IMG/VR virus record: IMGVR_UViG_2698536620_000015
Length of the DNA stretch: 49,469 nucleotides
DNA from: a virus
Lineage: Duplodnaviria; Heunggongvirae; Uroviricota; Caudoviricetes
Direction: 5' to 3' (one strand)
Position numbers: made by a program. Numbering within the stretch: the stretch's first letter is position 1; each line of letters begins with the position of its first letter. Positions 12,001-15,000 of the stretch are shown piece after piece.

Positions 12001-15000
12001 TCCAGAAGCGGGGAATCTGTTATCAAGGAAGAGTGGGTGAAGGAACTATGTCAGCATTGCCATGGTAAGGGAGAAGTCAGCACAGCGTGCAGAGGGTGTA
12101 AGGGTAAAGGTATTGTCCTGGATGAAAAAAGAACCCGGCTTCATGGTGTGCCTGTTTATAAGATTTGTGGGCGTTGCAATGGCAACCGGTTTAGCCGTTT
12201 ACCAACCACACTGGCGCGGCATCATGTCCAGAAACTGGTACCGGACCTGACGGATTATCAGTGGTACAAAGGATATGCAGACGTTATTAATAAACTGGTT
12301 ACAAAGTGCTGGCAGGAAGAAGCGTATGCTGAATCGCAATTGAGAAAAGTGACAAGATAGATAATTTTCGCCGAAGATGTCGACGTGATACTTGCATTTT
12401 TCAAAAAATATGGATAAGATTTTCTCAACGATGGGCCTTGTATGTCTACCGTTGGTAAATGTCAAAAACCCGCCGCTGAGCGGGTTTTTTGTGCCTGATG
12501 TCTCATGAAACTATGAAATGGATTGGTGCGTTAAACATTTTTTCTTATTATCTTTTAGATTTTGGAGAGATGGTTAACGTCTGTATTCCAGAAACTCGAT
12601 GGTTATTTAATAAATTAGTTTCAATGATGCTTCTAGGTTATGACTGTAATGAAAAAGGTATTAATAGCAGCGATAGGTTTTTGTTTAGTTGGTTGTGCAG
12701 GTATGAAATTACCTGAGTATTCGCAAGTTAAAGCAAGTCCGTATTATACAGATTGCCGTGCGTTTGCCATGGATGTTTATAAAAATGATGGATACAGCAA
12801 AATTGCGAAAACTACTATCCTTAGCATGGATGATGTGAAAGCTAGATATATTGTGACAGGGTGTGTAGTTGCTATGGGGAAAAACACTGTAGAGGAAATC
12901 AAAGCTGATCTCTCTGCTAAAGGGAGTTCTTTTGGGCTTATCAGTGGAGCTTGTTCTAGTGCGGCATGTCGGGTTGATGTAGAGCAGCAAATGAACGCTT
13001 ATGTACTTGGTAGTTATTATGCTGCAAATAAAAAATTCCCGGATAAAATGAAAGCAGAGTTTTAAGCAAACCTTGTTTTCGATTATATGTCGAAGATAAA
13101 TGTTAGTAACGGCATAATAAGTAAATATATAGCTGTGATAGCAACCCGCCACTGAGCGGGTTTTTTGTACCCGTAAACTTGGTGCAGTACAGTAAACACG
13201 CTGGTGGTCGTGAATACTGACTTTTTATCTTGCTGGCTTTTTAGACAAGAGTTATTGGTATGTCATGTTAACCAGAAGGGAAAAAGACATGCTAAAACAG
13301 CAAGATATGACAGAAACCGCCGCCGCAGTCCTTCATTTCTTACCTGCTGACAAGTGGGTAACGCCACGCATGATGACGAGAACTACCGGAGTAAGCGAAG
13401 CCCGGTGCCAGTTAATACTGACTCAGTTAGTTCTGGCGGGTCTGGCGAAGGATAACGGCGGGTACGGGAATAAATTCAGACGCTGCCAGTAATGGCGGTT
13501 TCCTGCTGTGAAAATGGGCGGCTGGTGGGTGTTGGTAGCACCTGCCAGCCATTCGCTCATGCTTACTGGTCACAAGCGAACCACGGCCCACTGCTTTAGC
13601 GCAAAAGCAGAGTGAGCCTACCAGAGTTACGCTTACTGATCCATGAAAAATACTGTAAAAATAAACAGTGTTGATTTAATCAACGCTGATTGCCTGCATT
13701 TTATTCAGTCCCTGCCTGATGATTCCATTGACCTGATTGTTACCGATCCGCCTTACTTCAAGGTGAAACCCAACGGTTGGGACAATCAGTGGAAAGGGGA
13801 CGAAGATTACCTTAAGTGGCTGGACCACTGTCTGGCCCAGTTCTGGCGGGTGTTGAAACCTGCCGGAAGCCTTTACCTGTTCTGTGGGCATCGCCTGGCA
13901 TCTGATATTGAGATCATGATGCGTGAACGTTTCAACGTGCTTAACCATATCATCTGGGCGAAGCCGTCCGGACGTTGGAATGGGTGTAATAAAGAAAGTC
14001 TGCGCGCATATTTTCCTGCCACAGAGCGCGTTCTGTTTGCTGAACATTACCAGGGGCCATATCGCGGCAAAAGTGACGGCTATGCGGCAAAAGAAAGGGA
14101 ACTCAAACAGCACATAATGGCACCGCTGATATCGTATTTCAGGGATGCTCGTGCCGAACTGGGTATAACGGCAAAACAAATTGCCGAAGCCACAGGTAAG
14201 AAAAATATGGTTTCCCACTGGTTTGGTGCCAGTCAGTGGCAGTTGCCGAATGAGGCTGACTATCGGAAGTTACAGGCACTGTTTTCCCGTATAGCGGCAG
14301 AGAAGTTTCAGGAACAACAACTGGAACAACCACACCACCAGCTGGTGGCATCTTATGATTCACTGAATCGTAAATATTCTGAATTGCTGGATGAGTTTAA
14401 ATCTCTCCGGCGCTATTTCTCCGTATCAGTCTCCGTGCCTTATACCGATGTCTGGATGCATAAACCCGTTCAGTTCTACCCGGGGAAACATCCGTGTGAG
14501 AAACCGGCGGATATGCTCAGGCAAATAATCAATGCCAGTAGTCGACCAGGTGATCTGGTTGCTGATTTTTTTATGGGATCCGGTTCCACAATAAAAGCAG
14601 CAATGGCGCTGGGGCGTCGGGCCTTAGGTGTTGAGCTTGAGTCAGAGCGGTTTAATCAGACAGTGAAAGAGATAAACGAGCTGGTGGGGAAATAATCTGG
14701 TGGCCACGTCAGGTGGCCTTTTTATTTCCATTACACAGCACCCGCATCTGCGAGGTGGGGTTATGAAATCCATGGATAAGTTAACAACGGGTGTCGCCTA
14801 TGGCACCTCAGCAGGTAGTGCCGGGTACTGGTTTTTACAGTTGCTCGATAAAGTCACGCCCTCACAGTGGGCGGCAATAGGTGTGCTGGGTAGTCTGGTA
14901 TTTGGCTTGCTGACGTATNNNNNNNNNNNNNNNNNNNNNNNNNNNNNNNNNNNNNNNNNNNNNNNNNNNNNNNNNNNNNNNNNNNNNNNNNNNNNNNNNN

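Follow-up and report, generated by a model that had tools for sequence, protein, structure and literature searches.

M.EcoGII, a beta-class prophage enzyme of 349 amino acids (aa), methylates adenine whatever the sequence context (Murray et al. 2018, PMC5778455). M.EcoGI and M.EcoGII originate from prophages of Escherichia coli O104:H4 C227-11; M.EcoGII is silent in the lysogen, its constitutive expression is harmful and slows growth, and many phage homologues were noted with it (PMC5778455). The enzyme also acts on RNA and single-stranded DNA. All expressed reconstructed ancestors were active on DNA and RNA, and M.EcoGII, the ancestor Anc291 and SUPREM are largely non-sequence-specific, with M.PflMI as the nearest site-specific relative (PMC11551740). 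In REBASE-based work, relatives with 92-94% amino-acid similarity to M.EcoGI/GII have been labelled non-specific. Here we describe an enzyme of this family, and the RNA leader that precedes its gene, in IMG/VR virus record IMGVR_UViG_2698536620_000015. The window, the whole stretch of 49,469 nucleotides (nt) that we analyzed, is a lambdoid prophage. The module consists of three parts:

13289..13492, plus strand: 67-aa stand-alone winged-helix protein, predicted (phrog_331 3e-26; conserved start; AlphaFold2; fold matches)
13506..13627, plus strand: conserved structured leader RNA, "motif A", with hairpins P1, P2 and P3 (covariance model, covariation)
13643..14695, plus strand: 350-aa beta-class N6-adenine DNA methyltransferase, almost certainly of the M.EcoGII family (profile, motif, pairwise identity)

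The enzyme resembles M.EcoGII and M.EcoGI in its class, its length (349-350 aa), about 80% identity over the full length, the DPPY...FxGxG motif order, its prophage setting and, judging by position, its silence in the lysogen. The winged-helix, leader and enzyme cassette also carries M.EcoGII-type alleles. The differences amount to about 70 residues, and the window allele is known from sequence alone. A second described system is com-mom of phage Mu. By analogy, both would involve a harmful late DNA-modifying enzyme whose initiation region is hidden in RNA structure until a specific event occurs, and in Shewanella and Vibrio relatives of the window enzyme a Com-like zinc ribbon is encoded immediately before the enzyme. 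The window differs in having a winged helix instead of Com and a far larger RNA (three hairpins plus alternative helices), and Mom is not a methyltransferase.

A conserved structured RNA precedes the methyltransferase gene

The element most worth attention is the leader RNA, which is not yet catalogued. The non-coding spacer between the small open reading frame (ORF) and the enzyme gene is nearly constant in length (138-153 nt), and its DNA is almost identical where the small-ORF protein is only ~50% identical. A 20-nt pattern from the spacer occurred at 132 places in IMG/VR and phage loci, and at 121 of these it was followed by a DPPY ORF starting 128-130 nt further on; the exceptions included four cut by contig ends, one frameshifted and four with the first hairpin only. 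Among 80 enzyme relatives drawn from one genome per species, the leader ended 16 nt before the start codon in 58. Identity to the window was 0.70-0.91 over leader nucleotides, compared with 0.59-0.77 over enzyme coding DNA and 0.36-0.56 at synonymous third positions, making the spacer the most conserved part of the module. A covariance model of the leader, derived from the alignment of 40 sequences described below, had a single match in the window (13506-13627, 127.7 bits) and 69 matches in 632 kilobases (kb) of related loci, one per locus, all on the plus strand directly upstream of the enzyme.

No Rfam 15 family matched the leader, even with permissive E-value limits: the best E-values were 0.89 in a 5 kb search and 2.8 in a 181-nt search, both to unrelated families far under thresholds. 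A literature search found no described leader of this methylase gene, though most subscription journals were outside its scope and absence is not proven. Murray et al. mention neither an upstream RNA nor a small ORF, and nowhere does PMC5778455 use the word "upstream". A preliminary description of the window had also passed over the conserved structured RNA in the spacer, as well as the wide prior annotation of the module reported below.

Several other identities for the spacer were considered and rejected. A hidden small protein does not fit the homologues, whose frames mostly stop after 7-18 codons, whose indels are not multiples of three, and whose substitutions are compensatory, not synonymous. 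The window allele alone has a 32-codon frame (13514-13612) that runs from an invariant AUG to the invariant UGA of GUGAGCC and is probably not a gene. An RNA on the minus strand was rejected on the orientation of all 69 model matches, which is that of the enzyme, on the excess of G.U over A.C in P1 and P3, and on the fold z-score (-2.55 on the plus strand vs -1.47). Prophage Pas small RNAs and anti-sRNAs were unrelated by literature check.

Helices and covariation

The proposed structure comprises three hairpins and two alternative helices:

13520..13550, plus strand: hairpin P1 (GGCTGGTGGGTG / CACCTGCCAGCC); 8 of 12 pairs with two-sided changes, 93.9% of alignment cells paired
13552..13580, plus strand: hairpin P2 (TTCGCTCATG / CACAAGCGAA), proposed "ON" helix; lower stem covaries (CG/UA/AU, UA/CG, GC/AU)
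13585..13618, plus strand: hairpin P3 (GGCCCAC-TGCTTT / AAAGCA-GA-GTGAGCC); lower stem 93% paired, GC/AU/GU exchange at the closing pair
13514..13560, plus strand: alternative helix P1ext, AUGGGC (13514-13519) with GCUCAU (13555-13560), excluding P2; 93.8% of cells paired in 40 diverse sequences
13568..13641, plus strand: long-range helix P5, GGUCA-C-AAGCG (13568-13578) with CGCUU-AC-UGAUC (13630-13641), abutting the AUG, proposed "OFF" helix; 89.1% paired

The test alignment, made with MAFFT from 40 diverse sequences, had not been fitted to the structure; the controls were the same partners slid by 1-3 columns and 500 shuffles. The proposed partners were paired in 81.5% of cells vs 33-43% when slid, and 17 of 34 pairs had changed on both sides vs 4-8; none of the 500 shuffles scored as high. 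In the fitted alignment, 87.3% of cells were paired and 21 pairs had changes on both sides. P1 was the best supported helix, with exchanges such as GGCTGG...CCAGCC to GACTGT...ACAGTC in Proteus. For P5, the slid controls were 19-44% paired and again 0/500 shuffles were as high; four of its pairs had two-sided changes, an example being AAG:CUU in the E. coli group vs GGA:UCU in the Proteus group. Substitutions in P1ext were one-sided and kept the pair, with AUGGGC itself invariant. A possible helix P0 (UGGGC:GCCCA) had five invariant pairs and one doubly changed sequence. We are confident on these data that the leader is a real structured RNA.

Two further pairings were tried and set aside. A pseudoknot of UGGUAG in the P1 loop with CUACCA in the 3' tail fits the window and a few sequences and breaks in most, and a helix P4 (GUGAGC:GCUUAC) had weaker support than P5.

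A candidate gate on translation

In all enteric homologues the enzyme start codon lacks a canonical Shine-Dalgarno sequence, and the 12 nt before the AUG (CGCUUACUGAUC) are highly conserved. P2 and the combination P1ext+P5 are mutually exclusive pairings, both of them conserved, with P1ext and half of P5 invariant. In ViennaRNA, the minimum free energy fold of the window sequence (-56.9 kcal/mol) includes P1ext+P5, while the best fold containing P2 reaches -55.4. Of 46 homologues, 36 favored the occluding fold energetically, and the difference averaged 3.6 kcal/mol. Two-sided covariation in the lower P2 stem speaks for selection on the less stable P2 state as well.

These observations suggest a default-OFF translational gate as the simplest reading. 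In the OFF state, the invariant 5' AUGGGC would pair with the 5' arm of P2 (P1ext), and the freed 3' arm of P2 would pair with the 12 nt before the AUG (P5), hiding the initiation region. In the ON state, P2 would form and leave the initiation region free. Translation appears to be gated in this way, in addition to transcription, because such an enzyme is harmful to the living cell. The hairpin structure of the leader is supported by covariation and the function is what we infer from it, and we regard the chances that the leader gates translation as evenly balanced.

The conserved UGAUC(C/U) before the AUG (13637-13642) is complementary to GAUCA near the 3' end of 16S ribosomal RNA, just 5' of the anti-Shine-Dalgarno core, and it might serve as an unconventional ribosome-binding contact. 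The same six nucleotides contain a GATC Dam site. The leader resembles translational riboswitches in having a conserved folded domain followed by an alternative pairing over the initiation region, with two exclusive structures kept in evolution. It differs from them in matching no Rfam family and in being confined to one phage gene family, and is a candidate switch only.

The leader might instead be a processed stable small RNA, an element for RNase processing or stability, or a platform for a protein acting in trans or on the late transcript (e.g. put-like). This would suit the strong support for P1, P2 and P3 and for the conserved single-stranded stretches, compared with switch helices that lie mostly on invariant sequence. 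It would also suit the frequent position of the motif directly 3' of a terminator, and the Vibrio relatives in which a small ORF separates the motif from the enzyme and a second conserved motif occurs. The distance from motif to start codon is nevertheless fixed to within a nucleotide in 58 loci, and the start codon it leads to is not preceded by a canonical Shine-Dalgarno sequence. All lineages examined have a P2 3' arm complementary to the initiation region, with changes of register that are compensatory, and the motif itself carries neither a terminator nor a U-tract. We therefore consider these other roles rather unlikely.

Several points weigh against the leader structure and the gate as drawn. 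The shuffle control ignores phylogeny, and the sequences were chosen and the structure drawn by the analyst. Most E. coli-type sequences have C.A and A.C at the two upper pairs of P2 (G.U on the opposite strand), and the minus strand would give the better pairing for P2 taken by itself. Three elements (P1ext, the UGAUC half of P5 and P0) are near-invariant on one or both sides; what supports them is conserved complementarity and not covariation, which cannot prove P1ext or that half of P5. A Hafnia phage lacks the UGAUC half of P5. The fold energies are predictions that leave out co-transcriptional folding and proteins.

The methyltransferase and its specificity

The preliminary description of a 350-aa beta-class DPPY methyltransferase was confirmed. 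The protein matched Pfam PF01555 (N6_N4_Mtase) over residues 29-341 with an E-value of 2.2e-42 and 145.9 bits (curated cut-off 26.7), matched PHROG DNA-methyltransferase families, and had beta-class adenine methyltransferases as its closest solved structures. A check for disrupted catalytic motifs found both DPPY (aa 35-38) and FMGSG (aa 310-314) intact. Motif IV (DPPY) lies N-terminal to motif I (FMGSG), which gives the beta-class assignment: the catalytic motif precedes the FxGxG motif that binds S-adenosylmethionine (SAM), with the target-recognition region between them. The ORF begins at the earliest start codon available in its frame and is not a chance ORF, since the exact protein occurs on at least 1000 public contigs. 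The enzyme is an orphan as originally described, with no nuclease gene among its neighbors (the winged-helix ORF, a lipoprotein ORF and the antiterminator gene Q upstream; holin, lysozyme and Rz downstream).

We compared the enzyme pairwise with M.EcoGII and five reconstructed ancestors. It was identical to M.EcoGII at 281 of 350 positions, to Anc291 at 310 of 350 (89%) and to Anc250 at 64%, with one gap of a single residue. M.EcoGII-type alleles (93-95% identical; L005, L010, L138) occupy the same type of cassette. The preliminary description held that target specificity cannot be read from the sequence; the ~80% identity to a non-specific enzyme and the activity of ancestors at 64% (PMC5778455, PMC11551740) speak against that. 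Specificity can be inferred by homology given the full-length, equal-length relatedness to M.EcoGII together with the activity of the ancestors, and the enzyme probably methylates adenines in essentially any context.

The public record reads differently, as NCBI and UniRef name the exact protein a site-specific DNA-methyltransferase (adenine-specific). An ordinary site-specific orphan with a short target, protecting against one or a few restriction systems, would agree with that name, with the fifth of residues that differ from M.EcoGII, and with the presence of M.PflMI, the nearest site-specific relative in the literature, in the same wider family. Against it, the public names are automatic, and the enzyme shares the length and architecture of M.EcoGII and is nearer to Anc291 (89%) than M.EcoGII-type alleles are. 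Ancestors down to 64% identity with it were active on generic DNA and RNA, and the REBASE-based label for relatives is non-specific. We consider a site-specific enzyme unlikely. Some caution applies to the non-specific assignment as well. The ~70 differences from M.EcoGII (~20%) fall in many cases in the central region, 80% identity is no guarantee of equal specificity, and target-recognition regions can shift specificity by a few substitutions. The sequences compared came from Table S1 of PMC11551740, and that of M.EcoGII was read by machine from a PDF and contains visible small errors.

The cassette in phages and genomes

The methylase gene is already known and very common, with the module annotated in thousands of genomes. 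Positions 13100-14800 are 99.5% identical to Escherichia phage Ayreon and 99.4% identical to mEp460, and the segment is shared with 70 phage records. A match to the 1457-nt module of small ORF, leader and enzyme was present in 1296 of the 5426 complete E. coli genomes, and single genomes held as many as 8 copies. The exact 67-aa protein, like that of the enzyme, occurs on at least 1000 public contigs, where it is named a hypothetical protein.

We regard the cassette as a mobile late-operon unit of lambdoid phages, consisting of a tR' terminator, an optional winged-helix gene, a structured leader of ~120 nt, an M.EcoGII-family enzyme and a terminator. Phage cdtI carries a different Q, and its homology to the window starts exactly at the terminator at 13143-13171. 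The cassette was found behind various Q genes in SfV, phiP27, 1720a-02 and phages carrying Shiga toxin genes (Stx2a phages), and in Hafnia, Morganella, Citrobacter and Klebsiella phages. Its downstream neighbor in other phages is a holin gene or a block of transfer RNA (tRNA) and stx genes. In phiP27 and Stx2a phages (L004, L010), winged-helix gene, leader and methylase lie directly 5' of the ileZ/argN/argO tRNA genes and stxA, so that leader and enzyme belong to the toxin-gene transcript. The distribution is mosaic, with many related phages lacking the methylase gene. Four IMG/VR contigs (L028, L069, L096, L117) hold degraded copies in which only the first leader hairpin remains, followed by AT-rich unrelated DNA with no methylase; this suggests deletion or replacement of the cassette at a point inside the leader.

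As the preliminary description stated, the window carries a second, early Dam-like methyltransferase at 8406-9059 (PF05869 1e-45, TIGR01712 1.5e-76, NPPY at aa 86). It belongs with the phage Dam-type orphans (M.EcoVT2Dam, T1/P1 Dam), which like the late enzyme are phage-borne orphan adenine methyltransferases thought to act against restriction. They differ from the 13643-14695 enzyme in their PF05869 profile, NPPY motif and early expression, and in being GATC-specific in characterized members. The presence of this early enzyme could mean that the main role of the late one is something other than anti-restriction, such as host shut-off or gene regulation by massive adenine methylation of DNA and RNA, or a mark for replication or packaging. 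The action of M.EcoGII on RNA and single-stranded DNA and the slower growth of heavily methylated cells point the same way. However, the activity on DNA is greater than that on RNA, restriction protection is favored in both published studies, and the dispensability of the gene in many related phages fits accessory counter-defense over a core function. We judge such a role improbable.

The small winged-helix gene

The 67-aa ORF at 13289-13492 was retained. An alternative upstream ATG at 13265 would give 75 aa (13265-13492), and the shorter reading is preferred because homologues start at MLKQQDM, corresponding to the ATG at 13289. The C-terminal RCQLILTQLV(L/M)AGL is invariant among homologues. 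AlphaFold2 with 30 homologues gave a predicted local distance difference test score (pLDDT) of 86.9 and an H-H-H-beta-beta fold (helices 4-17, 26-33 and 37-49; strands 53-55 and 63-65). Foldseek matched the winged helices of TrmBL2, ADAR1 Zalpha (TM-score 0.82-0.84), SelB (RNA-binding) and IclR, with weak E-values, as expected at 67 residues. The small ORF stayed below Pfam thresholds, the window protein scoring 12-14 bits vs cut-offs of 25-27; the best sub-threshold matches among the 30 homologues were TrmB (2.5e-4) and DprA_WH (1.6e-6), with MarR also present, all of them winged-helix families. The earlier suggestion that the protein is possibly DNA-binding thus held at the level of the predicted fold (AlphaFold2, Foldseek) and did not at the level of Pfam, and we predict a stand-alone winged helix.

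The small ORF was present in 39 of 57 complete species-level loci keeping leader and enzyme and was replaced by unrelated genes in the other 18, which makes it a frequent but not obligatory partner and weakens the earlier proposal that it is a regulator. A role as a controller that binds DNA or leader RNA and times the methylase, as C proteins do in restriction-modification systems, would suit the predicted winged-helix fold, which is as close to the RNA-binding SelB winged helix as to DNA binders, the position directly upstream in those 39 loci and in all phage records examined, and the analogous small ORF before the enzyme in Vibrio relatives. The likeness to C-protein systems is a small DNA-binding-type gene just 5' of the methylation gene. 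The differences are that the small gene is optional, that the fold is a winged helix and not an Xre-type helix-turn-helix, that there is no nuclease gene to time, and that a repeat search found no operator-like repeat. The protein is also far less conserved (~50% amino-acid identity) than the leader. A controller of this kind therefore seems to us unlikely.

Late-region neighborhood

The surrounding late region contains the following features:

12393..12421, plus strand: candidate late promoter pR' (TTGCAT-17 nt-TAAGAT) just 3' of Q (by eye, lambdoid layout)
12467..12495, plus strand: tR'-like intrinsic terminator, stop for Q-less late transcripts (annotated as a terminator in 99.5%-identical Ayreon; repeat copy D1)
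13143..13171, plus strand: second terminator copy, 5' boundary of the methylase cassette (repeat search, cdtI homology start)
14702..14727, plus strand: intrinsic terminator after the methylase gene (hairpin 14702-14718 then T-run, directly 3' of the stop; identical site annotated as a terminator in Ayreon)
14763..14918, plus strand: start of P21-type holin S, the next late gene (PF04971 3e-24; 3' end lost to the masked N-run 14919-15334)

Q lies upstream at 11566/11608-12360 (PF03589) and the holin gene downstream (PF04971), so the described position between Q and holin stands, as does the enzyme's own terminator. The methylase is downstream of Q/tR' and upstream of S on the same strand, in the slot that holds stx in Stx phages. 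No promoter of its own and no LexA box was found for the cassette within the window. From this lambdoid layout, expression of the methylase is likely to be late and Q-dependent. One detail counts against the promoter assignment: the candidate pR', placed by eye, scores under threshold in a consensus promoter scan.

The 29-nt tR'-type terminator exists in two copies (93% identical), which flank a 141-aa lipoprotein-like ORF at 12640-13065 (phrog_4748, lipobox LVGC). This ORF appears to be a moron that entered between pR'/tR' and the methylase cassette, the terminator being duplicated along with it. Just 5' of Q lies a 331-aa DUF968/HNH-like protein (10599-11594), an arrangement also seen in Ayreon, SfV and 1720a-02 and sometimes annotated as a second "Q". 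The lysis cassette is of the phage 21 type. The holin has a dual-start MKSM (14763-14772) as in the P21 pinholin, and is followed by a lysozyme with a hydrophobic N-terminus (15402-15935) and then Rz. We presume that this lysozyme is a signal-anchor-release (SAR) endolysin, from the likeness of its N-terminus. The N-run at 14919-15334 also removes whatever precedes the endolysin; further masked runs lie at 30328-30551, 34991-35271 and 43615-43911, with several shorter ones. No tRNA or transfer-messenger RNA gene was found in the window.

Distant relatives

In Vibrio relatives, a 3'-arm element of P2, GUCAUA(AG), is complementary to (CU)UAUGAC, which holds the AUG of the next ORF. In Vibrio, Aliivibrio and Psychromonas loci (L195, L197-L201, L203, L205, L207-L209), the place of motif A, ~60-170 nt 5' of the enzyme, is taken by a different leader, motif B (GCCUUGAGUACCUGAGACCCA...UGGAGAGGAAGC...hairpin...UUCAAGGCUCU). 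Motif B matched no Rfam family. Its loci carry a small ORF upstream of the enzyme, and 10 of 11 have a LexA-box-like site (CTGT-N8-ACAG) and a -10 element before the motif; LexA-like boxes were found only in these Vibrio-type relatives. Motifs B and A occur in tandem in three loci (L193, L194, L206).

Cys4 zinc-ribbon ORFs of 36-55 aa, similar to Com of phage Mu, lie directly 5' of the enzyme in L192-L194, L206, L202 and L204. The zinc ribbon of Shewanella locus L202 passes PF10122 (33.3 bits, cut-off 22.9), and the others are sub-threshold. In some Vibrio loci motif A is followed by a Com-like zinc-ribbon ORF, and in the zinc-ribbon loci inspected the Shine-Dalgarno sequence of the enzyme lies inside a potential hairpin. 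No Cys4 zinc-ribbon Com-type protein occurs in the window; such proteins were found only in Shewanella and Vibrio relatives. The Com-like zinc ribbons before distant relatives imply that translational control recurs in the enzyme family. By analogy with com-mom, the distant relatives may be controlled differently but as elaborately, which would fit the harm done by unregulated M.EcoGII.

Proposed control and its implications

The explanation that we somewhat favor overall combines the mobile cassette with a late, non-specific methylase that is silent until induction and lies behind an RNA gate. In the lysogen, transcription from pR' would halt at tR' and leave the enzyme silent. On induction, going by lambdoid biology, Q-modified RNA polymerase would pass the terminators, and the cassette would be transcribed with the lysis and head genes. 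The enzyme, judging by its homologues, would then methylate adenines in almost any context and shield progeny DNA from many adenine-sensitive restriction systems.

More tentatively, positions 13506-13642 could be the first member of a so far undescribed class of cis-acting RNA switches, dedicated to the non-specific adenine methyltransferases of temperate phages, that senses a signal and licenses translation only in cells committed to lysis. We think this possible though doubtful. If true, candidate signals would be SAM or S-adenosylhomocysteine, the N6-methyladenine mark of the enzyme on RNA, the winged-helix protein, or folding kinetics under Q-modified polymerase. Such a leader class would then be found in roughly one of every four E. 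coli genomes, and in Stx phages it would lie directly 5' of the methylase-tRNA-stx block.

The enzyme family is widely used as a tool (EcoGII footprinting, MadID, SUPREM), while its natural control and role are little studied. Thousands of copies are annotated as site-specific, and correcting this would alter the reading of prophage methylomes and of phage host range. The leader is an uncatalogued, strongly conserved RNA element in one of the best-studied organisms, and bears on how a genome-wide DNA modifier can be silent in the lysogen yet available late. It could explain low expression in the native context and might be reusable as a tight translational off-switch. In Stx phages, where the cassette lies directly 5' of the toxin genes, it may bear on the organization of late-region expression.

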